Source: Dipteris shenzhenensis (lineage: Eukaryota). From it: a stretch of DNA of 64,000 nucleotides. Below the pieces are notes generated by a model. That model saw only the letters and a program-made list of their open reading frames with translations, was not told where the DNA came from and did not search any database. The stretch is from NCBI GenBank assembly GCA_047967505.1, contig CM106538.1; one strand, written 5' to 3'. The position numbers and the translations under genes were made by a program. Below are positions 33,541 to 58,699 of the stretch, piece after piece; positions within the stretch are counted from its first letter, which is position 1; the number at the start of each line of letters is the position of its first letter.

Positions 33541-34446
33541 TCATTTCAAAATCAAGCTTCTCAGCATAGTCCTGAATACGAAGCTCCAACTGGGTAACCC
33601 TTTGGTCCCATACTGGGTTCCGACCTGTGCAAACCCACTTGGCCTGCTACCCTTGGCATCTTCATAGTTCAGGGCTATGGCTATTGCATCATCCAACGTG
33701 TTCGCATACTTAGCCCGAACTTCCATTTTAATCCGATCATTCAATCCAAATATGAAATCTTTCACTTGGATTGATTGAGGTAGGGGTTCATCAGCCTTCA
33801 TTACGCTCTCTCGAAACTTATCAGTGTATTCTGCCACTGACAAATTTCTCTGACGAAGGTTTCTATACTGATCCCAAGCTCGGGATGCTTCGTCAGGAGA
33901 TAAGAAGTGTTTTCTGAATTCCCTTTTAAACCCCTCCCAGGTAGTGGACGCAATACCATCCTTTTGTTGTTTAATCCACCACCGATCCGCTGCCTCACTA
34001 AACATGTGGGTGGCCTCGCGGATCTTCTTAATATCATTTCTGATTTCACAAATGGCGAACGCCTTGTCCCATTTGTGTAACCAGGTCTCAATGACATCAG
34101 AACTACGGTCATTCATCCGACCAGAATACTTTTTCGGCCTATAATTGGCAATATTAGGTACTTTAGCCTTTCTAGGCTCGACCGTATGGACACTAGACTC
34201 CGGTTCCATCAGAGCCTTTCCTTTCTCATCTCGAGAAGGTCTGGCAGACATACTGTGTATCACTCTTCTAAGTTCAGACTGCCATGCATTTGCCTGTAAC
34301 TGTTGCGCTAATAACTGCTGCAAGGCATCCTCAAGTAATGCTATCCTGTCAGATAAGGTGTGAACTACTGGGCGCGACACCTGCTGGGTCGGCCGGACTC
34401 CTGACTCACCAGGGTCCCTCCTAGAAGCTCCTTCTTCTGCTTCCAT
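33541..34446 (-). CDS. gag: Retrotransposon Gag, inverted relative to its PBS and pol, C-terminally deleted
   Basis: 301-aa ORF with AADRWW, TWEGFKREF, LRQRNLSVAEYTDKF and FIFGL; no CCHC knuckle. Confidence 0.9.
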   Translation of the reverse strand: MEAEEGASRRDPGESGVRPTQQVSRPVVHTLSDRIALLEDALQQLLAQQLQANAWQSELRRVIHSMSARPSRDEKGKALMEPESSVHTVEPRKAKVPNIANYRPKKYSGRMNDRSSDVIETWLHKWDKAFAICEIRNDIKKIREATHMFSEAADRWWIKQQKDGIASTTWEGFKREFRKHFLSPDEASRAWDQYRNLRQRNLSVAEYTDKFRESVMKADEPLPQSIQVKDFIFGLNDRIKMEVRAKYANTLDDAIAIALNYEDAKGSRPSGFAQVGTQYGTKGLPSWSFVFRTMLRSLILK

Positions 34447-35307
34447 TCAGGTCAATGAGTGTTTTGCTTTCTTTTTTTTTTTTTTTAAACACCGCTAGAA
34501 CACTGTATTTACAAACTGACACAATTTCCTATACTGTTTCGAGAGAGCGTAATGAAGGTTGATGAACCCCTACCTCAATCAATCCAAGTGAAAGATTTTG
34601 GATTGAATGGCAAAAGGTGAGAAACTTGGTTGAATCTGCCCCAACTTGAGGTATTCTTCCAGTTGTCTACGCACCTCTACCTCTTCAGTAAAACTCATTC
34701 TATACTATATAGGGAGGTCTATTTACAGGTTTTGCCCCCGGGATCAGTTCAATCTTATGCTGAACATTCCACTCTGGAGGTAATCCATAAGGTAACTCAT
34801 CCCTAAAACATTCAGAGAACTCCTCTGCTATTAGATTAGCCAACTTGGCCATCTCACCACTTTGAACAACATCAGTGCTAGCCGAAGAATCATCAACCGG
34901 CTCTACCGATGCCGTACAAAGGAATAAAAACTCTTCTTGAGCTTTTCGGATTTCCATCACGGAAACCAACGGTCCCTGAGGTCCATCTTTCTCACCTCGT
35001 AAGACATACAGCACATCATTCATCTTGAATTGATATACGTGCTTTTTCCAATCAATGGCTGGATTCTTCCTAGAATGCCACGCCATACCCAGGGCTATAT
35101 CTGCATGAGCAAGCTTAGTCATTTCAAAATCAAGCTTCTCAGCATAGTCCTGAATACGAAGCTCCAACTGGGTAACCCTTTGGTCCCATACTGGGTTCCG
35201 ACCTATGCAAACCCACTTGGCCTGCTGCCCTTGGCATCTTCATAGTTCAGGGCTATGGCTATTGCATCATCCAACGTGTTCGTATACTTAGCGTGAACGT
35301 CCATTTT

Positions 35308-37890
35308 GCCTCTGTATAGATTATAGAGCATTGAATAATATCACTGTTAAGTACAGGTATCCGATGGCTTGGATTGATGATTTGCTAGATGCATTACATG
35401 GAGCCGTGATTTTCAACAAGATAGATCTTAAGTGTGGCTACCATCAGATCCAGATTAGAGCCGAGGATGTGCATAAAACCGCTTTCAGAAGCAAATTTCG
35501 TCATTATGAGTTTTTGGTAATGCCCTTCGGACTTACCAATGCTCCAACTACATTCGTCATGCTTATGAACGATTTACTACGTCCGTATATCGGAAAGTTT
35601 GTAGTACATTTTATTGACGATATTTTAGTGTTCAGTAAAAGTATTACTGAGCATCGTGAACACTTAAGAATAGTGTTCAGTACTTTGAGGAAAGCCAGTC
35701 TTTATGTAAATAAAAGGAAAACTATATTGTGTATCGTTAGACTTGAATATTTGGGATTCATAATTACTCCAGAGGGGGTAGAAATGGAACCAAAGAAAGT
35801 GGTTGCGATACTGACTTGGCCAATCCCTCAGAGTGTGACCACTTTGCGACATTCTTGGGATTTGTCCAATTTTATAGAAGGCATATCAAAGGATATTCCA
35901 AAATAGTATTGCCATTGACTGATCTGACCTTAGATAAAGTACCTTTTATATGGGGACAGAATCAACAAGAAAGTTTTAACACCATAAAACAAGTTGTGGT
36001 CACAGGACCGGTGTTAAAAATAGTTGATCCCCAGAAACCGTTAGTCCTGAAAACCCATGCAAGTGGCATTGCGGTAGGAGCAGTTCTCCTTCAAGAGGAA
36101 AGGCCAGTAGCCTTTGAAAGCAAGCAGTTTTCTCCCTCCCAAAGGAATTGGCCAACTCATGAATTGGAGTTGTATGCTGTTATCCATGCTTTGAAAACAT
36201 GGAGGCATTATTTGTATGGTTCTGAGTTTTATGTGGATGTGGATCATGATATAACATTTTTGTAAACAGCCTGACTTGAGGGGCCGCCAAGCTAGGTGAG
36301 CAGAGCTCATGCAGGAGTTTAATTTGACGATTCGGTACCGAAGAGGGAAGGATAATAAGGTTGCTCATGCGTTGTCTCGCATTATGCACAATATGAGTTT
36401 TACGGTATTAGAGAGTGGTCTAATGACCGAGATTAGAGAAACTCAAAAGGTGGACGAGTTTGTCTAGAGCTTATGGCCTAAAGCTCATGTGTTTAGACCA
36501 GGGGAAGAAAAGCATGACCTGGCATCCAGAAAAGACCAAACTTATGCAAGATATAACATAAGGGATGGTATGCTGAAAAGAAATGGCAAGGTAGTAGTAC
36601 CTAGTCAGAATGACCTCAGGCAGAGAGTCATTCAATAGTGCCATGATAGCCCATATGCGGGACATCCAAGAGTCGAGAAGACATATGATCTCGTGAAGCG
36701 AGATTTCTTTTGGCCAAAGATGAAAAAGCATATTCATGAATATGTGACACGGTGTTTTTCGTGTCAGGTAAGCAAGGCCGAGCGGGTGAAGCCACCCGGA
36801 CTTTTACAGCCCTTGGAGATACCACTACGTAAGTGGGAAAAAATTTCCATGGACTTTATTGTAGGGCTGCCTACGACACAAGGTGGATATGATTCTATCC
36901 TTGTGGTGGTTGATCGTCTAACCAAGATGGCTCACTTCATTCCGACTAGAGAGTCTGTTAGTGCCCCGCAAGTGGCGGATTTGTTTATTAGACATATATT
37001 TCGTCTGCATGGATTGCCTAGATCCATAGTGTCAGACAGAGATGTCAGATTTACCGGTCATTTTTGGACAGCATTATTTGAGACGCTAAGGACTGAGTTA
37101 GGAATGAGTAGTGGGGATCATCCTGAAACGGATGGTCAGACGGAGAGAGTCAACCAAATTTTAGAGGATATGCTGAGGGCATATGTGTCATTGAGGCAAC
37201 ATACGTGGGACAAGTGGTTGCCATTGTTAGAGTTTGCCTACAATAATAGAAAACATTCCTCTACGAAGTTTAGTCCGTTTTGAATTGAATTATGGTTATA
37301 GACCAGCAAATCCAACTACAGTTGGAATACCTCAGAGAGTGCCTAGTGCCGTGAACTTTGTGGTTCAGATGCGGGAGATGCTAGCACTTGCGAGAGCTAA
37401 TATCCGCCAGGCTATGGATAGAGCCAAGGCGTATGCGGATGAAAACCGGTCTATAAGAGAATTTAAGGAAGGAGAAAAAGTTTTTCTCAGAGTTCCTTCG
37501 CACTCGAAGTCGTTAACTTCAGGAGAGTGTGCTAAGTTATCACCTCGATATTGTGGGCCGTGGTTAATTCTAAAGAGAATAGGGAAGGTAGCCTATAAAT
37601 TAGAATTGCCACAGGGGTGTAAGGTGCATCCAGTGTTTCATGTTTCGCACTTAAAGAAATTTTTACATACAGATGACTCACTAATCAAAGGTGTGGTTTT
37701 GTTTCAGGAGATAGAGGATAATGCAAGGCGCAAACCAACAAGAATCCTCGACTGAGAAACAATGCAAATACGAAATCGGAAGATACCCACGGTGTTGGTT
37801 GCATAGCATGGTCTGCCTCTATCAAAAGCTACCTGAGAATCCGTATACCAGTTGCGGAGAGTGTTCCCGGACTTTATCATCGAGGACGCT
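35308..37890 (+). pseudogene. pol: Gypsy pol (RT-RNase H-integrase-chromodomain), with frameshifts and stops
   Basis: LCIDYRALN, MPFGLTNAP and FIDD; RPVAFES...ELELYAV; ISMDFI, SDRD and QTERVN; YCGPW GPY/F motif; degenerate chromodomain after PTRILD. Confidence 0.93.
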
Positions 37891-38759
37891 GATGTCTTAA
37901 GAGGGAAGGAATGTTACGCTCTAGCCGAGGTAGCATGACCTCAGAAGAATCAGTCGACATTTCCCTTAAAGGATCTCTGTTTGTAATATATCTGTTTGCG
38001 CTTCATGTAAATGATCGGGAGAGAATTAATGTCAAGGTCCTAGGTGAGGGCTGATAGCACCAGACTAGGTGGATCTAAGGCTAAGGGCCTAGTGCAAGAA
38101 ATGTGCCTAGGGGCAATTGGAATTAAAGTATCCCAAGAGAGGGGTGAAAAGATGCATTACCTTCACGTATGATTTTGGATTTTGACTCTCTGTGAGCTCT
38201 TACTCTTAACAGGATTTGGCTGGGAGGTTACTCTATGGTGCTACTCCCGTGATCTGCTGTAGTTAGTTGAAGAGATTGTAATAGTTCCGTTTCGTTTTTC
38301 ATCTCTTCGAACGAAACGAAAAGATTTTGAACTGATACTTAATAGTCAACAAAGAGAAATAAAAGCCAAGGCTCCTAAAAAGGAAATTCAAAACACAAAC
38401 ACATTCTTCAAATTTATATACAAGGATAGGGGCAAATAAGCTATGTTATATTCAAGTTTTGAGTGAATAAAGAGAAATATAAGTCGACACCTAAAAAGAA
38501 AATTCAAAACACAAACACATTCTTCAAATTTATTTAAATTCAAGCTTTTGTTCTCCTTTCTCAAGTTTCAACTTTCGACCCAAAACTTAAAAGCATATGG
38601 ATTCTAGAAAAATGGGGCAAAAATGTGTATTTTGATTTGGGCAAAACAGAGGTTTCGTTGGGAGTGTTTTGTCATGTTTCAAAAAATTTCGTTTGGTTCC
38701 TCGTTTCGAGGTTTCAACGGGACGAATCGGGTCTTCATGTAGCCATCTCTCGTACAAGC

Positions 38760-39309
38760 CTCGGCTTCACCATCTTCCTGAGGCCTATTGGTCCGTGTCA
38801 TCTAGCTGGAAAAACTCATTGATCATGCTTTGATGTTGTGCACCCGATCTCTGTGCTCGACGCCCTCATGAATAGAAGTCACCCAAAGCATCTCTGATCT
38901 AGGTAAGGCAAGAAATGGGAGAGGGGTCCATGCCCATCCTTAAAGAGACAATGGTAATAAATGGTAATGGCCTCAAATCTTGTAGTATATGGGGCATTTG
39001 AGAGCGAAGTGCTCATCTGACTCAATCTCCTACTTATCACATAAAGTACAGATGTGACCCTCTCTAGGTATGCCCTCAACCCGCCCACTCTCAATGCATA
39101 GTCTGTTCGATGAGACACGGAATTGCTGATCGATATCCTCAGGTAATAGGGAAGGTGATCCGTGTATAGCCTGGTGGGTCGATGAAGCCCTCCTTGAAAT
39201 TCGTAAGAAATGGTCTCTATCAAAGTTGAGCTTTCACAAGAATCTCACCAAGTGCCAACTAGGTCCTAAATGTGTTACACCCGTTCATAGAAGATGAACA
39301 GTAACAGTG
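38760..39309 (-). mobile_element. 3' fragment of an RTE/RTEX-like LINE (same family as 61363-64000)
   Basis: YHCLFKDGHGPLSHFLPYLDQRC aligns by eye with YCLFRDNFGILSRFLSFPDQRC in ORF 61731-62255. Confidence 0.65.
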
Positions 39310-39314
39310 CCACT

Positions 39315-40304
39315 TTTAACCGGAAATGTAATCGAGACCAGAGGCTATAGACTAAGTATGGCGACGCTCAAAGGCCATAGAGAAGAGGAGAGCATGAGGG
39401 CGAAGGGATGACATAGGGGTGAAAAAGGAATTAGAAGGGGAGGGAAGGAAAAGGGAGACTATGACACAAGGGGAAAGGGAGAGGGGGAAGAGAAGCATGA
39501 ACATGATAGGAGGAGGAATGTTGAGATGTAGACATCAAGGGAAGTGATCCATACTTTATTGGAAAGAAGGGATGAGAGGGAAATATCAAAATACTAGCTA
39601 GGTGGCTTTACAAGAATGAGCGTGTCTCATCAAGGAATAGCCCCTTCCTTTTATAGCCAAAAGAGGGGGTCTCTCCACATTAATGTCTCCTCCCACATGC
39701 ATGGTGTGTGTGGAAAAGTCTCCCATGTGGGCTAGGTGGGTACGCACTCTCAATTGTGTGCGACAACCCTTTGCCTCAATTTTCCACATAAATCAAGCTC
39801 CATATCTCAAGTCTATGATACTCCCTTGGTCTCTTTCCAATTTTATAATAGGTTCAAACCTCTAGGAGGACAAGTGGAGGGTTGGCACAAGGAATCTTGC
39901 CACCTCATCCTACTTTCCCCATTATTTAACTAGCTCTCTTTGTCCTTCTATACCTCCCCCACATGGGCCTATCCCATATGGAGGGAATAACTCAATATAA
40001 TAGCCATCTCCACCCATTTTATATTGCTTCTCCCATGGACTTTGAGCCATATCTCACTTAATGCATCCTAGGTGGAGGGGTGGCACATGGAGGAGCCATG
40101 CCACCTTGCATTTTATAATATTACTATCATGGATTATGTACAACACACCTTATGGGTCCTCTTACATGGAAGGGTGGCACATGGTCATGCCTTGCCACCT
40201 CAACCTTGGGCCCTATGCACACCATATTTGATTATACTATTGCCACATATACAAACACACATACATATTAATGCCTTTTTCCTTAGACAATTTTATCCAT
40301 AACA
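39315..40304 (-). repeat. 3' LTR (990 bp)
   Basis: Direct repeat of 47301-48290 with about 4 substitutions by eye; preceded on minus by the PPT GGGGGGGGGAAC. Confidence 0.95.
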
Positions 40305-43300
40305 GTTCCCCCCCCCAGGCAGGGAATGCACCGCATTTCCATGCCTGGGACCATCACGCACGAAGAAAGGCTTGAGGTAGCGCTTGTTGATCACCTTCTT
40401 GCCATATGGTTCATGCAGCTCCTGAACTTGTACAGACCCATTGCTACGTTCTTTGATGACTTTGTATGGACCAGCCCACAGTGGCAGAAACTTCTTATCC
40501 ATTTGGTGGTCCAATCTGTTATCAAAGCATAGCACAACATCCCCCTCAGCAAAGTGTCTTTCCCATCCCTTGCGAATCTTAGCATCCAATCGGGCCTTTT
40601 GTCGATTCTTTTGGATCTCTGTCTGGTGTAGTGCAAGGCGTCGGGTCTCATCTAACTTCTCAAGTTGTACCAATCTGGCCTCTACACATTCATCTTCTGT
40701 CATCCTCTGTTCCTGCGCCAATCTCAAGGCCGGAATCTCTATCTCTAGTGGTAAAACTGCCTCAGTACCATACACCAACTCAAAAGGGGTGTGACCTGTA
40801 GATGTTTTATGAGTGATGTTGTAAGCCCACACTGCTTCAGTGACCTTCTGATCCCATTGGCTCCTATTCCCTGCGGCCATTTTTCCAATGGTTTTACAGA
40901 GGAGGCCATTGGTCCGCTCTGTTTGACCCATGGATGCTGGATAATAGATGCTAGAAGTGCGATGATCAATGCCCATGCGATCCATGAGTAATTCTACTGC
41001 TTCATTTAAGAATGGACTCCCATGGTCAGAGACTATCTCCATGGGTGTCCCAAACCTTGTGCAGATACGTTTAAAGATGAAATTTGAAACTGCCTTGCCA
41101 TTTGCAGCAGAGAGGGCGATAGCTTCAGCCCACTTAGTGACATACTGAGTGGCTACCAAAAGATACTTCTTTTTGCGGGCAGTCATGGGCAAGGGTCCGA
41201 CAAAATCTATGCCCCACTTCTGAAACGGATGGATGGACATCACTGGGTGATGTTGCCCAGGACGCAAATCCTTCCTACCGAAGAATTGACATGGTTCACA
41301 GGTTTTGCAATACAATGTGACATCCTTGAACAAGGTCGGCCAATAGTATCCAGCATGTAAAATCTTCTTAGCTGTATAGTCACTGGCATAGTGGCCTCCA
41401 CAAAATCCATCATGATAATGCTTCAATACCTTAGGCACTTCATCTGCATCAATGGCCCGTCTGAGCACCCCATCCATGCCTTGACGGTACAACACCCCAT
41501 CAAGGAGGGTATAGCGCCTACTATCTCTGCGGATCTTCTTTCTCTCATAACTAGTACTTTCTGAAGGAAAGGAGAAAGCGGTCAAAAACTTATAGATACC
41601 ACCATACCAAGGATCCCCAACTTCTATGGCTGCTACAAGGGTTACATCAAGGCACTCCTCTAAATCAATCAAAGCATTCTTCAAGTTGGAACAACCCCCT
41701 TTTACAATTTTGAAAGAAAAATCATATTCTTGTAGAACTGCCAACCATTTGGCCAACCGGCCCATGGGATTTGGTGATTGAAGAACCTGCTTTGCAAGAC
41801 CAGTGTCAGTGAGTATAAAGAAGGGCCTTCCAGCCACATAATGCTTAAATTTCTCAATGCAAAACACCAAAGACAAGGCATGCTTGTCGGCCTCTGAATA
41901 GCGTCGCTCGGTGTCGAGCAATTGTCGAGAAGCAAATCGAACGGGGTACATGAATCGATCCTCCTCTTGCTGGAGAAGAATACCTGCTAGAGTGTGCTTA
42001 CCAAACCCAGGATTGATATAGAAGGTCTTTGACTAGTCTGGATTGCGTAGAATGGGTTCTGAAGCCAGAGCATTCTTGATTTGTGCAAACCCATGATCAC
42101 AATCCTCATTCCAAGAGAAATCAACCCCATCTTTTAATAGCATAGTCATGGGCCGTGTCAAAGCAGCATACTGATCAATGAAGCGGCGATAGTATCCTGC
42201 TAGATTGACAAATGAGCGTACCTGACGTTTGGTTGTAGGTGGGGAGAGCTTGAGGATGGCTTCTACCTTCTCGGGGTCAGGCTTGATGCCCTCGGATGAG
42301 ACAACATGTCCCAATAACCTCCCTTGAGTGGCTCCAATGGTGCATTTCTCAGGGTTGAGACTGCCATTTGCATCATTGACCCTTTGGAAGGCCAATCTAA
42401 CCTTCATGACGTGCTCCTTACGTGATGAGAATATACAGAAATCATCTAAAAACACCTCCAAGAAATCCCCCAAATAAGGAGCAAACACCATCTGCATAAA
42501 TCTTCGAAAGGTGGCAGGAGCATTGGTGAGGCCAAATGGCATTACTTTGAATGCAAATGTCCCCCAGGGTGTGGCAAATGTGGTTTTAAGCACATCTTCC
42601 TCGGCAATTCTGATTTGATAAAACCCAGAGTAACCATCACAGAAAGTATACATCTCATGACCACTCACCTTCTCAAGAATGAGGCCTTGAAAGGGTAGAG
42701 GATGATGATCCCTCTTGGTGGCAGCATTGAGCTTCTTATAGTCGATGCAGACCCGCCACTTGTTGTTTTTCTTTGGAATGACTACCACTGGTGAAACCCA
42801 TTCAGTATTGTGAACCGGAACAATAAACCCAGCCTCTACAAGCTTCTGCAACTCTGAGCGCAAAGCATCGGTCTGCAGGGGCCCTAATCTCCGATACTTC
42901 TGAGCCACAGGCTTTGCATCAGGCTTCAGCTCTATCTTGTGCTCTATGGCAGTCACATGGCGAAGGTGGTGGTAGCTAGTTGCAAAGAGGTCAGGGAAAT
43001 CTTTGAACATTTCAAGAAACTCATCTTTCTCACCTGGAGTGAGGTCTGGAGAAAGCATTGATTCGAGCTGTTGAGGACTAGCTGTTATCTTTTCTGCAGG
43101 TGGCAGGGTCGGAGACACCCCCATCATGTAGACTTCCTCCTCTGAGAATTCGTCCCCCCCGTCTGATTCTTCCATGGACTCAGACACTGAAGATGAGATA
43201 GTATCACTGTCTTGCACCTCTTCTTCTTCCGGTTCCATGGCACCAGGTTGCACAGGGATTTTCTCCTTGGAAGCACCAAAAGACATGTGTCCTGTCTTCC

Positions 43301-44309
43301 AATAGCTGACTGCATCACTTTTTCTCAACCATGGTCTCCCGAGTATGGCTGGGTAACTTCTGCCTGTATCTTCAATGTCCACTACATAGAAATTGACAGT
43401 GGTGGTCAACCCGTTGACAGTGATGGGCAAATCCTCAATGACTCCCATGGTGGCGAGTCGTCGACCATCTGCTACCTTGATGCGAGTGGAGGAACGCCTT
43501 GTACATTTCAAATTTAATTTCTTCATGATGCGGGGCACCATGATATTACATGCAGCTCCCCCATCAACACACACATTTTTGACACGACAATTATCTATGA
43601 TGACATCTACTGTGTGTGGGTGCCGATCAATTTCTTCAGAGATAGAAGATACCTCTCGTACCTTTCCCTTCTTCTTGCTCTTCCTTGTTGAGAGACCTTG
43701 CTGCAGCTCACGTCTCACCTTAGGGCTTAATGCTATTAGTTGAGGGAGTGTGATGCTCAAAGACCGATGAGCAAGGTCCTGAACGACCGAATAGTCTTCT
43801 TGCCCTGAGCCGATGGGAAAATCCGAGGGTGACCACTTACTCCTGCGAGATCTTTTAGTCTTCTCTGTTGGTGGGTCTGCCATCTCAGCATCTGAGGGCT
43901 CTGAGAAGGACACCTTCTTCCTGGGGCGGCCTGGTCCACGGTTTGGAGAGGGGTCCGAGGTAGCACGAGTTCTTTTCCCGAGATCAAGGATCTCCACATC
44001 AGAATCCTCAGTGCCTGACTCACTTAGAAGATTCACCCTTGGAATATTGGGGCATTCTGTGCGATAATGACCCTTCTGGTGGCACTCGTAGCATACAACA
44101 TTAGCACGATCTCTTGGAGGGCGGTTGGCTTGATTTCTGATGCCCACCATCTCAAGCCGAAGATCATTCAGGGCCTTGGCTAGGTCATTGACTCCAGGTT
44201 CTGTTGCAGGGGGGGGCATCTTTAGTTGGAGGGGCCACGGGAGTAGAGAGGAGGGGGGCTCGTGGGCGAGGCTGGGGAAATCTTCGAGGCGGAGGATGAG
44301 GATATCCAC
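40293..44309 (-). CDS. pol: Gag C-terminus plus Pol (CCHC, protease, RT, degenerate RNase H, integrase); one in-frame TAG at 42033-42035
   Basis: CYECHQKGHYRTEC; VCVDGGA; FLDD; ORFs 42033-44309 and 40293-41951 share a frame (27 open codons between them); integrase HHCC plus GIDF/SDHG/QTER. Confidence 0.93.
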
Positions 44310-44985
44310 CTTGTTGAGGGCAAGTATCTAAGGGAGGACCATACATTTGAGGTGGAGGCGGTGGATACATCCCTGATGAGGGGTGGGGGTATACCCCTGA
44401 GTTAGACCCCCCAGGTTGTTGTTGCAGGAATGGAGGGGGATGCGGAGGGACAATCGTCTTCTTTGAAGCGGGGTCAGACTGAACTTTGTCAAACTTTTGA
44501 GCAATCTCATGTGCTAGCACCATAGTTTCGGGATTCTCCCATTTAAGCTTGAGGCGAAATTCATCACTCGCTCCTGCTACAAGGTAGCCCAGCACATGCT
44601 GAGTCATTCCAGCTCGAAACCCGGCATTGTCATCCTGTGTGGCAATCAAACGGTCCAGGAGCACGGCCGCTCGATCCACATATCGACACGCCGTCTCACC
44701 TTCTGACTGCTTCAAATTTGCCACCTGCAGGTACACATTCTCCGGCTCCTCTTCTTTGCCGAAATACTCAATCATTGCTGCTGTCAACCTTGGCCAGCTT
44801 TGGCGAACATCTTCGGCTTGCTTCTCATACCACACTTGAGCCAAACCTTCTAGAAATGTGGGAAGAACCAATAGCCATCTGTCTTCAGTAAGAAAGTTGA
44901 GAGAAACACAACGGCGCTTGAAAGCCACAAGATACTCATTTGGATTTTCTTCTACCCGTCCACAAAACACGGGAATGTCAGCCAT
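44185..44985 (-). CDS. gag: Gag capsid domain
   Basis: FLEGLAQVWY, LKQSEGETACRY and a Pro-rich linker; shifts into the pol frame near the G8 run at about 44209-44216. Confidence 0.9.
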   Translation of the reverse strand: MADIPVFCGRVEENPNEYLVAFKRRCVSLNFLTEDRWLLVLPTFLEGLAQVWYEKQAEDVRQSWPRLTAAMIEYFGKEEEPENVYLQVANLKQSEGETACRYVDRAAVLLDRLIATQDDNAGFRAGMTQHVLGYLVAGASDEFRLKLKWENPETMVLAHEIAQKFDKVQSDPASKKTIVPPHPPPFLQQQPGGSNSGVYPHPSSGMYPPPPPQMYGPPLDTCPQQGGYPHPPPRRFPQPRPRAPLLSTPVAPPTKDAPPCNRTWSQ

Positions 44986-45200
44986 GCTTGGAAGATGGAA
45001 AAGAGGGGCTTATCTATGGACGGACAATAGTAAGAGGAAGCTTGAACTGAAAATCGGGCGAAGATACATCCAAAAAGCACACATAGGCAGGGTAAGGTGT
45101 GACTGGTGTAGTGTGAAATATTACACGAGAAGAATCTTCAGCATAGAATAGCACATAGACAATCTTAAAAGGACCAATCCTCATGATATCACTTTGATCA

Positions 45201-45365
45201 TTACACGCGAGGGTTAGAGGTGCGGCGTCGCATGAGGTTGTTCATCAAGGCAAACAAGAATGCCATGACAAATGTCAACAGTTGGAGAGCTTGCACATCA
45301 CCTTCAGCTTCTTCCAGTTCTTGTAGTCGCCATTCTATTTCCTCAAGGGGTGTGCGGTCTGGCAT
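45201..45365 (-). CDS. Small upstream ORF, 54 aa: charged helix plus hydrophobic segment
   Basis: MPDRTPLEEIEWRLQELEEAEGDVQALQLLTFVMAFLFALMNNLMRRRTSNPRV*; its ATG overlaps the end of the previous ORF. Confidence 0.45.
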   Translation of the reverse strand: MPDRTPLEEIEWRLQELEEAEGDVQALQLLTFVMAFLFALMNNLMRRRTSNPRV

Positions 45366-45543
45366 TCTTCTTTTGAGCAATGTCCTTGAGAACCCTCCTG
45401 ATGGTCTGCCGAAGTCGGTGAACTCGTATCAAGTAGGCCCAACACTTAGTTTCATGATGACCACAACCTTTGCATTCCTTACAAACAATCACCCTCCTTC
45501 GTGGCTTGCGGCCTTGTTGGGGTGGCGCTTCCACTCGCGTCAT
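45343..45543 (-). CDS. Small basic CCHC zinc-knuckle protein, 66 aa
   Basis: MTRVEAPPQQGRKPRRRVIVCKECKGCGHHETKCW...; exact C-X2-C-X4-H-X4-C spacing. Confidence 0.6.
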   Translation of the reverse strand: MTRVEAPPQQGRKPRRRVIVCKECKGCGHHETKCWAYLIRVHRLRQTIRRVLKDIAQKKNARPHTP

Positions 45544-45943
45544 GCGTGTTGGAAATACAAGCTTCACGTGCCAAGAAATCAGCAACAAGATTTCGAGCTC
45601 GAGGGATATGCTGAATTTTTACCTCTTCAAACTGGTTGCAAAGTTCCAAGGCCTGTTGATGTCGTAGAACCAAGCCTTTGCTCCGCACCTTCCATCTTCC
45701 ACTAACTTGTTCACACACTAGTTGAGAATCTCCTTGCACCTCCAATTGCTTGGCCTGATGTTCTTGTGCCTTTTGTAACCCAAAAATGAGCGCCAAGTAC
45801 TCAGCTTGATTGCAAGTACTTGCGGGCGAAGACTTGCTGTAACAAAACTCCTCACCACCCGGTGAAGTGAGCTTCACACCCACGCCAGCCGCCTTGGTCG
45901 AAGGTTTGTAAGCTCCATCAAATTGAAGAATCCAAGATGTCAT
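45479..45943 (-). CDS. Stand-alone archaeal/plant-type ribonuclease HI (aRH), 154 aa from ATG
   Basis: WILQFDGA, TCNQAEYLALIFGL, LEVQGDSQLV and HIPRARNLVADFLA; the D-E-D-D catalytic set is intact. Confidence 0.93.
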   Translation of the reverse strand: MTSWILQFDGAYKPSTKAAGVGVKLTSPGGEEFCYSKSSPASTCNQAEYLALIFGLQKAQEHQAKQLEVQGDSQLVCEQVSGRWKVRSKGLVLRHQQALELCNQFEEVKIQHIPRARNLVADFLAREACISNTHDASGSATPTRPQATKEGDCL

Positions 45944-46988
45944 CACACCAAGACGAGAATTTGGACATCCCAAGTTTCTCGGTAATCCAAAATAGGTAGG
46001 AGGAGAGGGTGGGGAGAATTCAACACTTAAGCCAAACGTTCAGCACCAAATAAACTTGCAATTCTTTGTTCATAGTTTATCTTAAGCCCAAAAAGAATTA
46101 CAATTTGAAGCTCGAAATGAGGCACAAAAGGCTGATTAGGTACAAATGGATTCCTTGGCCGAAACATTACCAACCATAGCCAAGCCCTAGAAACCTTTGT
46201 AATGAGATTGTGAATAAACCATTCAGGACGAGCTTTTCCACAGGAATCAACAAGCAGATGCGCCAAATCTCCCCCCAAGCTTGGGGAGCATCCCACCCTT
46301 CGAAGAAGGAAACCGTTTTGATTACCTCTAAAGCAGCAAGTAGTTCGATCACCGCACAATGAGTAGAAGTAAAGTCAAAATCCTCCCAGCGTATCAGTAG
46401 TTCGTCACCTTGAATTATCCACGGTGTGTCATTCCACCCGTCATCACCATCAATAATGCACTGGGACAATTAGCCTGGACAATTAGCCGTTGAAGGTCGA
46501 CATGAAGATCAAGGAAGACATCTCGTGCATTGGTAGCCGTAAGGTGCGGAGGAACAGGCACCAATTCCTTAAACGCGTCGAGAAGTGACATAAATGTCCA
46601 CTCTTCTCGTGAGGCGTGCGTCCGTGAAGTGGGCTTGGAGAAGTTCTGAATTGGCGATCTAGCAAGAGAAGTGGATAGAGAACATAAAATGAAATATTTT
46701 TGCTTTTTACAACAAGAGCAAACTCCTTATGGTTAGAGAGTTACAGCTCCCGCGATTTCAATATATGAACAAAAATCATTACATTTTTACCACTTCCAAC
46801 TTGTTGGCCCAATGATAAGACTTTCTTTTGTGAAGGGGGAGGTCTTGGGTTCCAATCCTACTCTTTAATAAAAAGAGAGGAGAGGAGAGGAGAAGGAGAA
46901 GAGAAAGAGAAAGAGAAAGAGAAGAAGAGAAGAGATAGGGGGGGCGCGGGATCTGCTGTTACTCTTTTGCAGCGCGACCAGAGCAGTC

Positions 46989-47175
46989 CAGAAAACAGTC
47001 CGCGACCAGAGAACTGTCGCGCAGAAAACAGTCCGCGACCAGAGAACTGTCGCACAGAAAACAGTCCGCGACCAGAGAACTGTCGCACAGAAAACTGTCC
47101 GCAACCAGAAGTCGCGGCAGTCCAGAGAACTGAAGCGCAGAAAACTGTCCGCAACAGTCCAGTGAACTGTCGCGC
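46989..47175. repeat. 33-bp tandem repeat in the element leader (3 near-perfect copies plus degenerate ones)
   Basis: Unit CAGAAAACAGTCCGCGACCAGAGAACTGTCGC(G/A). Confidence 0.9.
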
Positions 47176-47277
47176 AGGAGACGCACGAATCGAATGCTTA
47201 GAAAGAGCACAGATGGTATAGTTTTGTTGATGTAACCCGTACGAATAGAAGATTCGCCACCAGCCGTGGAGATTCGT

Positions 47278-47295
47278 ATCCCAGCAGCCACACCA
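47278..47295 (-). promoter_or_regulatory. Primer binding site, complementary to the tRNA-His(GUG) 3' end
   Basis: TGGTGTGGCTGCTGGGAT lies 5 nt inside the 5' LTR; plus strand reads ATCCCAGCAGCCACA-CCA, as in plant tRNA-His recalled from memory. Confidence 0.8.
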
Positions 47296-47300
47296 AAACT

Positions 47301-48290
47301 TTTAACCGGAAATGTAATCGAGACCAGAGGCTATAGACTCAGTATGGCGACGCTCAAAGGCAATAGAGAAGAGGAGAGCATGAGGGCGAAGGGATGACAT
47401 AGGGGTGAAAAAGGAATTAGAAGGGGAGGGAAGGAAAAGGGAGACTATGACACAAGGGGAAAGGGAGAGGGGGAAGAGAAGCATGAACATGATAGGAGGA
47501 GGAATGTTGAGATGTAGACATCAAGGGAAGTGATCCATACTTTATTGGAAAGAAGGGATGAGAGGGAAATATCAAAATACTAGCTAGGTGGCTTTACAAA
47601 AATGAGCGTGTCTCATCAAGGAATAGCCCCTTCCTTTTATAGCCAAAAGAGGGGGTCTCTCCACATTAATGTCTCCTCCCACATGCATGGTGTGTGTGGA
47701 AAAGTCTCCCATGTGGGCTAGGTGGGTACGCACTCTCAATTGTGTGCGACAACCCTTTGCCTCAATTTTCCACATAAATCAAGCCCCATATCTCAAGTCT
47801 ATGATACTCCCTTGGTCTCTTTCCAATTTTATAATAGGTTCAAACCTCTAGGAGGACAAGTGGAGGGTTGGCACAAGGAATCTTGCCACCTCATCCTACT
47901 TTCCCCATTATTTAACTAGCTCTCTTTGTCCTTCTATACCTCCCCCACATGGGCCTATCCCATATGGAGGGAATAACTCAATATAATAGCCATCTCCACC
48001 CATTTTATATTGCTTCTCCCATGGACTTTGAGCCATATCTCACTTAATGCATCCTAGGTGGAGGGGTGGCACATGGAGGAGCCATGCCACCTTGCATTTT
48101 ATAATATTACTATCATGGATTATGTACAACACACCTTATGGGTCCTCTTACATGGAAGGGTGGCACATGGTCATGCCTTGCCACCTCAACCTTGGGCCCT
48201 ATGCACACCATATTTGATTATACTATTGCCACATATACAAACACACATACATATTAATGCCTTTTTCCTTAGACAATTTTATCCATAACA
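47301..48290 (-). repeat. 5' LTR (990 bp)
   Basis: Direct repeat of 39315-40304; starts TGTTATGG on minus; followed by the PBS. Confidence 0.95.
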
Positions 48291-49360
48291 CCACCTAAGT
48301 CAAGGTAGGGGCTTTGAAACCAACTATAAAAAGAAGAGAGATGCAATCATTATGCACATTTTAAGGCACGGATTAAACCACAAGATCCAAAGTCTCCCAA
48401 GCCCAATATACCAAGGGACGAGAGGGGACATAAGGAGGGACGTTGAACCATGAGCTCTTGATGAGCACTTCCCTGCACTCACTGGTGGCTCGAGTAAGCA
48501 CGCTGGCCAGTCTGAACCACTCGTACGCCTCTTGTCAGGGCTGCAGCCTCCCTTATTTCAGCACTGCATCGCCATCCTAGCAGATCTGTTTGAGGGCCTA
48601 CTAACATAGCAATATAATGCCCAAGCATTGTGAATCGCTGGAAAACTTTGATATTCCATGCAATTGGATGAAACAGCCTGCAATTGATCTTCCATGCAAT
48701 TGGATGAAACAGCCTGCAACATTCTTGCAGGCCTCTTAATGTTGAAGCCCCCATGGGGGCCCATTTCTTCAATGCTAGCTTGAGCACTAAATTGTTGAAC
48801 CTCCACCATTGGCAGCAACGTGGGGAGCTCTTCTAAAGTAGCTAGTAAACATGAGGAAAAAATATCAAAGCGTAAAAAGTTCGGAGACAATCAAGCTTAA
48901 TTGTTCATAATCACGAGCCATCCACTCTAGAAAGCTTCGGCCTAAAACCTACTTGCGAAAAGTAGCAACTATTTTATTCATTTTCCACTTGTCTAATGTT
49001 TTGTGGCTATGTGTTTTAAAGACTTTTACTCTTGCCCAACCATTTTAAGCTTTCAACATGGAGGCCTTGCCATTTTCCAGCTTTTTAAGATCCATCTTGA
49101 TACCACATTTGTAATAACCTCATCTAAGACTCCTCTTTGATTTTTGCATCCTCACTATCATATCCTTGACTCTATTGTCCCATTCCTAACTATCCTTACA
49201 GGTAATCTTCATGAGAAATCTCAAGAATTTCTCTAAAGCTTATGAAATCGATCATGTTATTCTCTCTTGAGAAAATTAACCTTTTTTGTCCTTATCAACC
49301 TTTTCCCATAGCTATTTTGTTCATAGCTACTATTATTTTCGACATTTCCCTTGCATTATG

Positions 49361-49449
49361 ACATTCCCTATGACATCATGCATTGCATGGCCATTCCCTA
49401 TTACACCATGCATTACATGGCCATTCCCTATTACACTGGCCATTCCCTT
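49361..49449. repeat. 30-bp tandem repeat inside degenerate retroelement-like sequence
   Basis: CATTCCCTAT(G/T)ACA(T/C)CATGCATT(G/A)CATGGC, about 3 copies. Confidence 0.8.
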
Positions 49450-51179
49450 ACTTCTTTGGCTTTCAAAGAGGCATTTATGAGTTGTTTCTTCCATTATCTT
49501 TGTAAACTCACTGCTCATTGTTGGGTTTGTTGGACAGCTTACCCTCCATTCACTTGGAGCTCGAGACATTTTCTTGTTGCTATCTATACGCATGAGATTT
49601 GTTGCAGTCCATCTTCAATAATGTGGCGACTTTGCATTCCCCACTATCCCACTTTGAGAATTTCATCTAATGAAGCGTTAGCATAATTATGATTATGCTG
49701 GACCCTTTTCATAGCCCTCTCTATTCATGCATATCCTAGCTCTATCTCTTACTTGCATATGGACACCACAAAGGGTTAGAATGTTCTTGATGTCTTCCTT
49801 TGACCACATAGCACTATCAAACAAACGAGGGAGATGTAGCAAGGTAGTACCTCTACAATATCTCTATGATTTGTTTCGGACAATTTGTAGTCTCCTATTG
49901 GACATCTAGATTTCGCAACTATCCTTTACAAATCCAATCAAACTATTCTCGACACGTGTGAAGGCCCCACAAGGAGCAAGGAAATATAGGTCACCCATAT
50001 CCATGTGTGCCCTTGTCCCAACCTTGAGCTACACCTTCATTCACATGGATGTTTTAGGGGTCCCTTGTCCAAAAAAGGAGCATCATCAAACACTGGGTGA
50101 GGTCCTTGAAACAAGCAATCTAATATCTCAAACCTAACACAATTTTTAAAAACAAGAAAAATTTGTGCTTATCAATAACGTAAACATTTGTGTTTATGTT
50201 GCATTGACCAAAAGGTGAGCTATAGAAAAGAATCCCAAGATCACAAAAGTTCATGTTCATTTGTAAACTTCCAATTGCCTTTAACTTCAACATTAGCATC
50301 TAAAGCTTTCACTAACTCTTTAGCTTGCTACATCATCAAGTTGATTTAGGCCAAGGAGGATGCTAAAGACCCATTTCAACAGCACACATATTTATTACGA
50401 AGATAAACTTCTCAACAATGTGCTAGAGGATAGTTTCCATCTCGCCCATCTTCAATTCACCCTAACTTATGCTTAGTTCCATAGGGCAAGGTGCTACTCT
50501 ACACAACCATATGTTGACCCTCTTCGACTTCATTTCATTTGTCATCTAAATAACTCTATTCACATTGGAATGAGCTTCAGTTTATTACGCATCACCCTTA
50601 TGAAAATATATTTGGCATGCTTGAGTGTGAAACAACTCCCAATAACCAAGATGGCCCACGGTGTGTGAGTTCTAAGAAAACTTTGAGAATGGAATATGTA
50701 TCCATGGCGGCACCAAGCTCGAAGCAAGCCTTTCCTTGTGTATGTCTCGAATTGGAAATTATGCTACTCCTTGCGGATTCGACCTCCTTACTACTCTTTC
50801 AATCCTTTACCTACTACAAGCACTTTTCTTTCATAGGCCTACACAACCAAATGCTGCATGTACTACTTGAACCTACTTTGGGTTCCGATTACTTTGATCT
50901 AGTGGGTTTCTTACATATGCAACTTCAAAGCCATTCCAATAGACTGCTAACAAGAACCCAACCCCTTTCCCCTAGAACACCACAAAAAAGGAGTCCTCTT
51001 TTCTTTCTTTCTTTTTGTTGTATGTTTTGGTTGCTTTAAATAATAATAATAATAATATAATAAAGACGGGGCGGAGGGAGTATAGGTAGGAAAGATGCGT
51101 TTGCACCCTCTAAAAATATGCAAATGTTGCAATCTTGGATTGGCCAAAACAATGTTCAAGATCAAAATAGAATGGCATA

Positions 51180-53449: not shown

Positions 53450-56400
53450 CCTGAAGGAAACTCAGAGAAGAAAGGAGATCCCCTCCAAACTCTGAAAAAA
53501 GTAACTCTCCTGGCAGTGGCTGCTCTGTGGAGGATCCCTGCATGCTCGCACAAATGGCCATCAAAGTGTGTACTGTGTTAGTCCAAATACTGGCCATAGT
53601 CTGGGAAGGGTAAACCTGGATACCCTCCATCGCCTCTAGACACCTGGCTCTCCAAATATGCCAAGCTACAATGCTAGCCAAAATCTCCCAAGACGTGTCT
53701 ACTGAGGCATGAGCAGCTCTGAAAGGAGTGAGGGGAATATCTTGGAGGGAACAAGACTCCACTGAGTGTCACCGTACAATGAAAGTTGGATCTGGATCAA
53801 ATCCCTCGAAAAACACCTATGGGCCAGTAAGAGATAACCAAGCCACTTAAACCCAGGTCATATAGAAAGGTGTTGTATGAAAGATGCTGAAAATCCTAGA
53901 GACACCTTTCCAGATCGTCCTCGCCTGTCTGCACTCCCAAAGGCAATGTTGTACTAACTCAACTGCCATGTGACAACGAGGACAAGTAGGGTCAACCCCG
54001 AACCTGGATCTCCACAAGTTCACTGCAATCCCTCCATGAATAGAAAGCCAAAAGAAAAGAGTGATCTTTCTATTCCTGAGGGATTTCCAGAGCCAACACC
54101 AAAGTTCTTTCGCACAGCTGCGAAAATCTAAAAACTATCCCAATGTGGCACTCTGAGGGGCCTCCAATCTCTACTACTGAGCTGAAACCTCCGGGCATTT
54201 CTAACTGTGTAGCAAAAGAAGGGAAAGCTCTTCTCTCGGTGCCCCTCATCAATCCATTCCCACTCCCCTAGGTCCCACTGCAAGAACCTAATAGGGGAAC
54301 CACCATACAGCCAGAGTCTCCAAGACCGCAGCGCAAAGAGAATGGGATCAGGGGCAAGATACCACTATGAATCCCTGCCCCACTCCATGAATCCTGCAAT
54401 CCTGACAGGCTGAAATGCAACCTCCAAAAGAATATCATCAGAAGATCTGATAAGCCTGCCTCCCGACTGAACATTAAAGACAAGGGTATCCTCCTGTGCA
54501 TCCTGCAATGCAATGATCTGTAACGGAATGCTCGTCTCTGAGAACGCTCCCCACCAAGTGGACTTTGTAAGCGGCATGTCATCTGTGTCAATCCACTCTG
54601 GCGGAATGGCTGCCTATATCTGCTATATCCTGAGTGCACTCCCTCTGAGGTGGCCAGCTGCTAAAGTCTCTGCCTCTGGAAGTCTCATAAAGGCCTGCCA
54701 AGCACCTACAGTAGAGGCAGGTCCCCTCTCCCATCTAGACCACTACATATAATGTCACACTCCAAGTGGCCTGCCATGATGATCCAAAATCGAGTCATTC
54801 CACATGACTGGCTGCCTTTCAATCTCTTCACGAGAAGTGGGTGGAACTCTGCGAAGTGTGTTTCTGAAGCAGCCCCAAGCTTTCAGAATAGCAGCCATGA
54901 GAGGGGAAGGCTGAAGTAAAGATCCATCTGCTGCTGTCCAACCAATCTCCCCCATGAGAAGGGGTGCAAGACTGAATGCCGCGTGAGAAAAAATCCTTCC
55001 AGGGCTGCTGTCCAGGTACCAATCCACATACTACAAACTTGCAGAGCAAGGCCATACACTGCAAGCTCGGGTCAATAATATTGAGACCCCCTTCTCCTGT
55101 GGGGAGAATGAGGGTCTCCCAAGCCACCCTAGCTACAACATCTAAGGTGCCATCTAAACCGCTCCATAGAAAGTTCTTGATAGGTCTCATGAGCTGAGCG
55201 ATACAACCTCTAGATCTGCAGCAACATGAGCAAACAAACCAAGCAATGGCCAACAATACCTGGTTCACAACCACAACTCTAGATGCAAGGTCAAGTCTGG
55301 CTGAACTCCAAATAATGAGTTTCCTCCTAATACTCTCCAACACAGGAGTGAACTGCTATGCCAGAGAGATGCCCAACCCAACCTAGCATCCCAGATATCT
55401 GACAGAGACTCCCCTCTAAATCCAAGTGAACCCTATGTCATCACTAATCCAAAAGCCATTGGATTTGTTCCAATTAATGTGTGCACCTGCCGCAATGCAA
55501 AACAAATCCAATGCTGTCCTAAATGAATTCAGTGTCGATGAATTGGCATCCAAAAATACAGCCGTGTCATCTGCCAACTCACTGTCTAAGAGCTCCTCCT
55601 TTTGCCTCAGAGGAAGCCTGAGCCCTACGATTCCAGCTTGAGCTCTAATGTAATAGCTCATAGCCTCAGCCACAAAAAGGAATAAAAGGGAGGCTAGGGG
55701 GCATCGCTGACGGACTGATCTGGTAATCTCAAACCTATCTCCCCTGACTCCACCAATAAAAACCTGGTTGTGGGCTGATTTGTAGAGGACTGACACCCCT
55801 CTGATCCATGCATCTGAGAAGCCAAAACGAGTAAGTGTGCCCTCCAGAAAGCCCCAATCTACCCTGTCATAAGCTTTCTCAAAGTCCAAGAGTAGAATGG
55901 CCAGCCTGTGGCCATTATGCATGGCCCAATCCAAAGCCTCTCAAAATGAGAAGATGTTATCAAAGATGCTCCTGCCATGCACAAAACCCGTCTGCGTATC
56001 ATGGATAAGATCTGGTAGAAAGGGCTGCAGACGAAGGCTAATAGCTTTAGCTAGGATTTTGTACAAGGTACCCAGCAAGGTAATTGGTCTCCACTAAGAC
56101 ACTAAATTCCTGCAACCCCCTTTTGGAATCAAATGAATGAGGCCCTCCGTAAGTGAGTCTGGCATCTCACCTGAGTCCCATACACCCTGTAGGGCTAAGG
56201 TAATATGATCCCCAATCTAATCCCAAAAAGGTTTAAAAAATAAGGAGGTAAGTCCATCTAAACTAGCGCTCCTGAATCGAAGCATTTGTAGGCCTCTTCT
56301 GCTTCTCCCTCTGGAGGGCAGCCAACTACTGGCGGATATCTATCTCACGCCTGAGGATCTCACCCCTTCTGATACGAGCAATTGAATGATAAAAGTCACT

Positions 56401-57300
56401 GATATCAAAGAGGGCTGCGGCTAAGTATGAAGGAGAAAGCTGCCCATCCAGCAAATGAGATACCCAGGTCCTCAACACTGTCTCTGTAAGGCCCTCCTCT
56501 GCATAGAAAGAATCTGGAATCCTAACACCGGCAGAGCGGTGCCTCACATGGAGATCTGAGACCATCAAAACCACTAGAAAATGATCCGAAGTGGACACCC
56601 CAGCTGCAATGCAAACAGTACCACCTTTGTCAAGAACCCAATCATCCACATAAAATATGTCAATCCGTGCATGTATAGGCATCTGCCATCTCCTGTTCGA
56701 CCAAGAAAACATGAGAGAATGTGGCTGAGTGTGAAAAGCATCATCATGCCAAGCATCCCTACCACTGTATTGAAAAAGGAAGGCATCCCACGCTGCTCTC
56801 TCTAGGGAGTGAATGCCACCTTCCCTACCACCCCTTTTGTCTGAGGGCATTTCAACCATGTTGAAATCGCCCCCTATAATCCAAGCATCTGCAATATGTG
56901 ACCAAGAGAGCAGTTCCTTCCAAAAAAGAACACGATCCCCTCTAGAATTGGGTGCATAAAGGTTTAAGAGACCAACCTTATGCCCATCAATCAAAAGTAT
57001 AATCCACTGAGCTCTAGAAGGGACTATGATCCCGTGTCCAATCACCAAGGGGAGTATAGAAGAAGAAACAGAACTGCAAGTACCTCCCCTGGTGCCCAAG
57101 GCGGGTGACCAAAAAGTGTGGCCTGAGAGAAGCTTACCCGACTTAGACCAATCCTTGGCATCCAATTTGTGTTCCTGAATCATCAAAATGTCCATGGGAC
57201 GCCCAGTAACACCTGGATGAAGTTGGTTACGAATCAGTTGCCTGCGGCGACGGTGAGGTATACCCTCGAGGCCCTGAATGTTCCAACTAACAATCCTCAT
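53450..57300 (-). pseudogene. L1 ORF2 (AP endonuclease, RT, C-terminal region), disrupted
   Basis: MRIVSWNIQGL, IQEH, NLYAPN, GGDFN and SDH; LDFEKAYDRV, VRQRCPL and LADD; WHIWRARC. Confidence 0.92.
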
Positions 57301-58699
57301 CTGCGAGAGGAGGAGGCCAAATTGAATATCCTTCCCGACTTGGTAGCGGAGAAAGCCCTCTCATGCGAAAAATTCCTCCTATCAAGAGGAGGGAAGTCAA
57401 CTAGGAAAAGCACCCCCCCCTGCTGAGGGGGAAACTCTGTCCTGGAAGATATGCTCCCCAAGCGTGGAGGGTACAAACTCCTCCTCTGCCTCAAACTCAA
57501 CCAAGTCTGCCATAACTGAAAATGAATTCTTGCGAAGTACCTCTGGCCAGGAGTGTGAAGGAGCTCTGGCGCAGGAGTGCGAAGGAGCCCTGCACAAGGA
57601 GGAGTGGAACCAATAACCCCCTTACCTCAGTCGGGTGTAGACAAATGTGGCCACAACTGCATGACCTCAGCCACAACTTTGTCATTGTCTTAAAGCACGG
57701 TTCTCTGCAGAAAGATTCTCCCTAGATCAACGCTCTTGTATCTGAACAAGGTCAGGAGCAGTCTCATCTACATATGGAACCAAGACAGGGATGTCTCCTG
57801 CCTGAAGAGACGGGCAAAGGCAGTCAGGTCCGATGGGGTACCGCATGTTAGAGTCATTGTCTCTGACCCTAACATCTCGGATGGCCACATTATGCTTCGG
57901 CGTCCAGATGGCTCCTTCTTCAGACAGAGAGTCAAGATTGCAAGGAGATAGGATCAATGTAGGATTTGCAGGACCCTTGGGCACTTTGCCAGAGATTGTC
58001 CAAGGAAAAAGAAAAGACCAAAAAGATCCACAGGTGCGCCTCATAGCTTCACCAGACCTGGACCTTCTTCACGACCAGTTCCTTCGACTTCACAGCCAGG
58101 ACCATCAGCCTCTCGTTCTGGTACTTCTATAGCACGGACATGACAGCTAGCACATCTTGCTTCGGTCCTCCCCCATTGGGTGCCTATCAAAAGTTGGTGA
58201 GCCAGTACCTCAGGCTACCACTGATGGGGCCACGGACACCTGAGGAAGGCCTGAAAATCTGATGAAGAGTGACGTCGTCCGGCTGTCTTCCTCGACAGGA
58301 TCAAACCCCAGTGAAAAAGGGGTCAATAAAATCCTCCTGAAGCCCAGTGCTAGCGGACTAGCCTGAAGCACTGTACGTGCTACCTCCGAGGAGTCAAAAA
58401 CAATATGGAAGAACCTTGCCCAAGCAGACAAACATCTGAGAAGTGCCCTGCGAAGTCTCCAGGTAGAGCGCGGCGAGTATCCAATCCCTGGCTTGTAACC
58501 TAGAAGGGGACCCATGGATGCGAGCAAAGAGTGAAGTCGAGCTCTCTTGCTCTATATCTTTTTTGAGCTACTGTAACTCATCTTTAAATGATGGTTTTTG
58601 CGGCCGATGGAAGTGGGTGAGGATTGGTTGAAGGCAGAGCCATTGTCAATCAGGGTGGAAAGGCCAAGCGAGCACAGTTGAACTCCATCCGACTAAAAT

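Follow-up and report, generated by a model that had tools for sequence, protein, structure and literature searches.

The element and its two RNases H

The window considered here is a stretch of 64,000 nucleotides of contig CM106538.1 from Dipteris shenzhenensis (assembly GCA_047967505.1), and the subject of this report is a long terminal repeat (LTR) retrotransposon on its minus strand which carries an archaeal-type RNase H (aRH) in an open reading frame (ORF) of its own ahead of gag. The element occupies positions 39312-48290, a unit of 8979 bp. Blastn of both ends gave a pair of LTRs of 993 bp each that are 99.6% identical, differing at 4 of 993 positions. Between them lie, in order, a leader, the aRH ORF, a 493-nt spacer, gag, a pol region encoding protease (PR), reverse transcriptase (RT), RNase H (RH) and integrase (INT), and a polypurine tract (PPT). 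Pfam returned the domains in the order gag, Asp protease, RVT_1, RT_RNaseH, Integrase_H2C2 and rve. With the LTRs, a stretch resembling a primer-binding site (PBS), a PPT and the PR-RT-RH-INT order all in place, the locus is a complete Ty3/gypsy (Metaviridae) LTR retrotransposon. Its features, from the 5' to the 3' end of the element, are as follows.

47298-48290 (-): 5' LTR, 993 bp, starting TGTTATGG, with a TATA-like CTATAAAAGG near 47640
47271-47295 (-): PBS-like stretch TGGTGTGGCTGCTGGG..., TGG-initiated, 2 bases past the 5' LTR end, by direct reading
Between the 5' LTR and the aRH ORF (-): leader, 1354 nt, with 16 ATGs by count
46989-47109 (-): leader tandem repeat, 3.7 copies of a 33-bp unit (TRF score 221, 96% matches; self-blast)
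46873-46935 (-): CT/AG-rich microsatellite in the leader, adjoining the tandem repeat
45479-45943 (-): aRH ORF, 154 aa plus stop; ATG at 45943, stop at 45481-45479
44986-45478 (-): spacer, 493 nt from aRH stop to gag ATG, from the position of both ORFs
44185-44985 (-): gag ORF (capsid part); ATG 44985 in strong context, stop 44187-44185; Retrotrans_gag 2.5e-05
42033-44327 (-): first part of the pol frame, with nucleocapsid zinc knuckle (44093), aspartic protease and RT; ends at TAG 42035-42033
41718-42032 (-): native gypsy-type RH, degenerate (Pfam RT_RNaseH, Ty3 alignment, MAFFT)
40938-41450 (-): integrase, H2C2 zinc-binding part and catalytic core (Integrase_H2C2 1.7e-12, rve 2.8e-13)
40305-40316 (-): polypurine tract GGGGGGGGGAAC, G-rich, abutting the 3' LTR
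39312-40304 (-): 3' LTR, 993 bp, by blastn against the 5' LTR

An initial annotation, made from the sequence of the window, had proposed that an intact aRH stands as its own 154-aa ORF inside the LTR-bounded unit, on the same strand and about 500 bp 5' of the gag ATG. This was borne out: the ORF at 45943-45479 has a complete set of catalytic DEDD residues (D9, E48, D72, D122), and the measured spacer is 493 nt. The translation matched RVT_3 (3e-26) and RNase_H (9e-08) in Pfam and aligned end to end with two archaeal-type RNases H of solved structure, 3HST (the N-domain of Rv2228c; 2e-17) and 4E19 (Halobacterium RNase HI; 5e-16), with its FDGA, AEY, GDS and AD motifs all matched in these alignments. 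The solo ORF thus encodes an RNase H of the archaeal type in which no residue of the catalytic set is missing. Its frame differs from that of gag, and stops lie between the two. The same annotation held that no aRH is present elsewhere in pol or after integrase, and here too our searches agree: Pfam found no second aRH in the four element ORFs, and tblastn of the aRH against the 64 kb gave a single match at E <0.01, the ORF itself. The pol frame extends into the 3' LTR (the integrase ORF runs on to 40293), and so nothing follows integrase.

The RH that forms part of pol presents the opposite picture. It retains a Pfam RT_RNaseH match of 74.7 bits, as against 138.8 bits in P0079, a Marchantia relative without aRH. 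In a MAFFT alignment with 14 relatives, the columns of the catalytic D, E, D and D are occupied by G9, D49, D76 and N119; in the alignment with Ty3 (4OL8/7Q5B, numbering read from the alignment), E401 lies opposite an Asp and D426 opposite the Asp of ILTD. The motif TDAS is rewritten to NPGF and ADxLSR to KNALID. The initial annotation had called this domain dead because it lacked the first catalytic Asp and the Glu. The loss of the first Asp and the retention of the ILTD Asp stand; the Glu is not simply missing but replaced by Asp, and the fourth catalytic Asp is lost as well. In terms of its sequence, the native RH therefore keeps the signature of the fold with two of its four carboxylates lost (D to G, D to N) and a third changed (E to D).

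This degeneration extends beyond the present copy. None of the six aligned RH rows formed by five members of the aRH-bearing clade and P0080 has the first catalytic Asp, whereas seven outgroup rows without aRH keep it. Since the aRH-clade rows lack this residue and the outgroups retain it, the degeneration of the native RH is old and lineage-wide and not a product of decay in this copy. P0080 (ENA, 1126 aa, from a 6379-nt contig) merits a separate remark: although it has no RVT_3, the first Asp is gone from its native RH (NPT for TDA), and the aRH of that element may lie outside pol. In the RT tree described below, P0080 sits with P0092 on a long branch, set apart.

The boundaries of the element are well placed. 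Contigs of two public DNA runs (X1, X2) run across the junction at which pol ends and the LTR starts, and because they join both sides the pol/3' LTR boundary is confirmed. A 4-bp target duplication, GTGG, is possible if the LTR end is placed two bases earlier. ARAGORN found no tRNA genes in 38000-49500; a tRNA-like stretch noticed by eye at about 46790-46860 was dropped after neither ARAGORN nor Rfam (E up to 1) returned anything for it. Contigs of one DNA run seem to break at the leader microsatellite (46864-46935).

The copy itself is young, with its 4 differences per 993 bp of LTR, but defective. An in-frame TAG (42035-42033) lies between RT and the native RH, directly before the latter, so that no RH-INT product can be made without readthrough. 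The TAG at place 42034 is absent from all 14 sister contigs that cover it (1, 1, 4 and 8 in four runs), and since every one of them reads another letter the stop is private to this copy. In addition, the pol frame is offset by +1 from the gag ORF, with which it shares 142 nt (44185-44327), and the nucleocapsid zinc knuckle (44093) falls in the pol frame, past the gag stop. This offset may be a mutation, or it may be a family feature or a programmed +1 shift.

Sister copies, lineage and published layouts

Had the aRH been found only in this copy, chance capture or a nested fragment would have been the simple account, as the initial annotation recognised. It was not. A search of 5.8 billion clustered proteins with the aRH gave 28 matches, nine of which are close relatives (69-82% identical), the two best being 154 aa long. 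The corresponding clusters have 8 and 25 members, with a length of 154 aa in 6/8 of the first and 8/15 of those listed for the second. Together they yielded 14 distinct full-length 154-aa sister ORFs, 79-82% identical to the present one. Among the sister copies, P0032 is encoded on a contig of 8128 nt. D9, E48, D72 and D122 are invariant in 16 of 16 distinct rows (this copy, the 14 full-length sisters and a 145-aa fragment). Constraint was judged at the protein level from the contrast between core and tail: residues 1-130 differ from the sisters by 14.1% and residues 131-154 by 48.5%, and 33/130 columns are variable in the core as compared with 16/24 in the tail (Fisher p about 2e-4, a value that is indicative only since the rows are related). 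A difference of this kind would be expected under purifying selection on the enzyme. By these comparisons the aRH is a feature of the family and not a chance capture. A decayed relative, P0009, contains the translation of the upstream segment (about 46170-46040) joined to the aRH; because it carries the same upstream frame in this position, the 5' context of the aRH is shared as well.

The DNA-level data tell the same story. Logan contigs from four DNA runs were placed on 40305-48290 at a likeness of at least 80%, and they covered 30, 30, 29 and 29 of 30 bins. One run contributed 100 contigs at a likeness of at least 99%. A 1027-nt contig of another run, spanning 45060-46083, that is, the aRH and most of the spacer, has 66 differences and no gap. 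More diverged contigs of two further runs are collinear with the order pol, gag, a piece of spacer and the 5' flank of the aRH; these cover the flanks only, the interior of the aRH being uncovered at the threshold. When metagenome contigs were scanned with the aRH alignment, three distant loci only were obtained (L001-L003, 32-35% identity), and the scan of viral contigs gave no loci.

To which lineage does the element belong? A search with the RT-RH region gave, as its best full-length relatives, proteins that were 43-51% identical over 93-97% of the region and carried RVT_3; they comprise ENA proteins and proteins of a fern, Adiantum nelumboides. The identity to a Marchantia protein without aRH was 46%. 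Two of the relatives have Pfam orders of the retrovirus-like Tat layout, gag-PR-RT-RH-aRH-INT in P0067 and PR-RT-RH-aRH-INT in P0073. In an RT tree of 112 rows, made after 9 of 120 matches with RT coverage below 85% had been dropped, the element is sister (SH-aLRT 96, from a quick IQ-TREE run whose careful search was unfinished) to a clade of 33 rows, 26 of them with an aRH inside Pol. Further traits of aRH-bearing Tat elements are present: an additional archaeal-type RNase H (RVT_3 3e-26), a degraded native RH core (G9, D49, D76, N119) and, for the layout discussed next, a 5' LTR (48290-47298), an aRH (45943-45479) and a gag ATG (44985) in this order. The protein clusters nearest to it are assigned no more precisely than Streptophyta. 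We regard it as very probable, for identity and layout alike, that we are dealing with a single copy of a Ty3/gypsy element of the Tat lineage.

The initial annotation went further and suggested a new architecture, possibly a new lineage. That suggestion fails, as the arrangement is already catalogued. In Ustyantsev et al. 2015 (PMC4408406) and Neumann et al. 2019 (PMC6317226), three positions of the aRH within the polyprotein are described. Biryukov and Ustyantsev 2023 (Genome Biol Evol, PMC10508981) surveyed 92 plant genomes and reported a separate aRH ORF 5' of gag as 'structure #4' in four mosses and Selaginella tamariscina, the moss elements being Tat B and the clubmoss elements Tat C. 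In Prokopeva et al. 2026 (PMC13468544) the layout is named 'pre-capsid' and credited to the 2023 paper and to Wang et al. 2021 (New Phytol). The pre-gag aRH architecture is thus not new; the layout was published in 2023. The present element shares with it the independent aRH ORF between 5' LTR and gag, the degenerate native RH, the gypsy order of Pol and an RT that probably falls beside Tat elements from plants without seeds, and nothing in its architecture sets it apart.

Comparison with the other Tat layouts is instructive. Structure #1, the dual-RH type of Ogre, Retand, and fern and hornwort Tat elements, includes the nearest full-length RT-RH relatives (43-51%) and likewise lacks the first catalytic Asp of the native RH. 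There, however, the aRH is fused into Pol behind the dead RH, while here it is separate and about 3.4 kb upstream; and the third Asp of the native RH, lost in the structure #1 relatives, is kept here. Structure #3 (conifers, Cycas, Ginkgo) also has a solo aRH ORF outside pol and raises the same question of action in trans, but its aRH lies 3' of integrase. In PMC13468544 the post-integrase aRH is ambiguous, either part of pol or a separate ORF in the 3'-UTR. In the present element the aRH is 5' of gag and the LTR boundaries are unambiguous.

The resemblance to retroviruses concerns the native RH. Retroviral RT reportedly combines a connection ('tether') domain with an acquired RNase H, an account that PMC10508981 credits to Malik and Eickbush 2001. 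In both cases a degenerate ancestral RH would persist in a structural role while catalysis falls to an RH acquired later; the difference is that in retroviruses this later RH is covalently joined to RT, whereas here it would need to be recruited as a separate protein.

As to its source, the aRH is only 33-37% identical to the aRH within Pol of the nearest Tat relatives; to multi-RNase-H proteins and stand-alone RNases H from elsewhere its identity is much the same (36-45%). As it is similarly distant from the in-Pol aRH and from unrelated stand-alone RNases H, these comparisons point to no particular source, and PMC10508981 takes the same view of the origin of the pre-gag aRH. The six best matches outside the family (P0171-P0176) have two or three tandem RVT_3 domains and no retrotransposon domains. 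An N-terminal SAP domain is present in two of these six, P0171 and P0175.

Supply of RNase H and alternative readings

The most likely functional reading, in agreement with the published view, is that RNase H is supplied from the separate ORF. PMC10508981 reports that the native RH is degraded in all Tat structures bearing an aRH. As is the case for other Tat elements and for retroviruses, the dead native RH of the present element would serve as a spacer behind RT (a 'tether' or connection). The aRH would be translated as its own 154-aa polypeptide and act in trans, performing the degradation of the RNA strand that reverse transcription needs. Made as a separate polypeptide, it would have to reach the particle by recruitment, and the contact might be with Gag, with RT or with the RNA:DNA hybrid. 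We consider such a trans-acting mechanism probable, with appreciable doubt attached to it. The broader explanation, a Tat element with the structure #4/pre-capsid layout whose aRH would supply the RNase H, is the best overall account of the locus, and we give it a probability of roughly 0.8.

Several points weigh against this explanation. The route of translation is one: 16 ATGs precede the aRH and about 14 precede gag (15 were counted over 44977-45478, a range that takes in the spacer and the gag ATG itself), which makes translation from a full-length RNA doubtful. A 1354-nt leader with 16 upstream ATGs argues against simple scanning, and with so many ATGs ahead of both the aRH and gag a spliced or internally initiated message is plausible. 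The native RH is another, since D49 and D76 leave it two carboxylates with which residual metal binding would be possible. Moreover, the placement in Tat is based on fern and ENA relatives and on a quick, unfinished maximum-likelihood tree in which the element has a long branch (0.46). Finally, the copy would need readthrough to make RH-INT and therefore tells nothing directly about activity.

An alternative to a free polypeptide is that splicing links the aRH to Gag or Gag-Pol, or that recoding lengthens it, for instance by a +1 shift into an overlapping frame with a zinc knuckle; in both cases it would enter the particle within a larger protein:

45442-45483 (-): CX2CX4HX4C zinc-knuckle motif CKECKGCGHHETKC, +1 frame; starts at the last aRH codons, with a basic stretch before it

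In favour of this reading, the motif (45483-45442, +1 frame) lies right where the aRH ORF finishes. Only three such motifs occur in the six frames of the 64 kb, one of them the element's own nucleocapsid knuckle, whereas in 30 shuffles the mean count was 0.13 and no shuffle had more than 1. The knuckle frame is open from 45618 and is the frame of gag, and the step from gag to pol is likewise +1. A GCG AGT G in the aRH tail presumably resembles the +1 site of yeast Ty3. Yet all 14 full-length sister aRH ORFs stop at the same codon, none being extended, and no part of the ORF varies more than the aRH tail that overlaps the basic lead-in of the knuckle. The knuckle ORF had no homologue among proteins of 50-160 aa and no Pfam match, and stops separate it from gag in their shared frame. 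Nor was gag found in any of the 10 best-scoring longer aRH relatives that were scanned; these have several RVT_3 stretches each, and a SAP domain in two. Five other leader and spacer ORFs were without Pfam match, and one further ORF had a match at chance level only (E 0.078). Joining or extension of the aRH in general is accordingly unlikely, and the specific version in which +1 recoding (or a splice) yields an RNase H-knuckle protein, packaged by virtue of its binding to the genomic RNA, is highly unlikely. If true, such a protein would explain how a trans-encoded RNase H enters the particle in pre-capsid Tat elements.

It might also be asked whether the aRH has any role in reverse transcription. 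It could be a passenger, either a captured fragment of a host or LINE (long interspersed nuclear element) RNase H or a gene acting on the host, for example against silencing, with the element relying on host RNase H or on residual activity of the native RH. Its low identity to the aRH that the nearest Tat relatives carry within Pol (33-37%), its similar closeness to RNases H elsewhere and its location outside pol are in keeping with this, and the authors of PMC10508981 themselves questioned how an aRH encoded there could act. Against it, the aRH stays open with invariant catalytic residues over 14 sister ORFs, and its core is far less variable than its tail. The native RH has, moreover, lost its first Asp just as in every aligned aRH-bearing relative, while relatives without aRH keep DEDD, as expected if the aRH replaced the native RH; and no LINE sequence was found flanking the aRH ORF. 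We find the passenger reading distinctly unlikely. Scarcely credible is the remaining idea, that the split is an artefact of one decayed copy and that the intact family has a normal RH. The private in-frame TAG and the gag and pol frames that do not match would fit with decay, but LTRs differing at only 4/993 positions show too little divergence for the changes of TDAS to NPGF and of ADxLSR to KNALID. Relatives only 33-40% identical have likewise lost the first Asp within an 'NP' motif, and the affected part of RH is covered by a sister contig of 612 nt with 18 differences. We therefore retain the reading in which the separate aRH ORF would provide the RNase H of a structure #4/pre-capsid Tat element.

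Neighbouring elements and implications

Other mobile elements have left traces in the window. The remains of another Ty3/gypsy element lie at 33541-37283, with gag/Ty3_capsid at 33541-34446 (-), RT at 35292-35906 (+) and integrase at 36639-37283 (+); they are 24-35% identical to the pol of the aRH-bearing element. A LINE-like element at 54828-57360 (-) has an endonuclease/exonuclease/phosphatase domain and RVT_1 and no detectable aRH, and a CCHC motif lies near it at 57958 (+). A LINE origin of the aRH was considered and rejected, the LINE at 54.8-57.4 kb being without detectable aRH by tblastn.

With its LTRs, PBS and PPT located, the element of Dipteris shenzhenensis offers a cleanly bounded example of the layout, in which a position ahead of gag is not open to confusion with one behind integrase. 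It adds evidence that the solo aRH ORF is under constraint across many copies. The family, of which several public DNA runs contain numerous nearly identical copies, would be suitable for testing how an RNase H may act when its gene lies outside pol.

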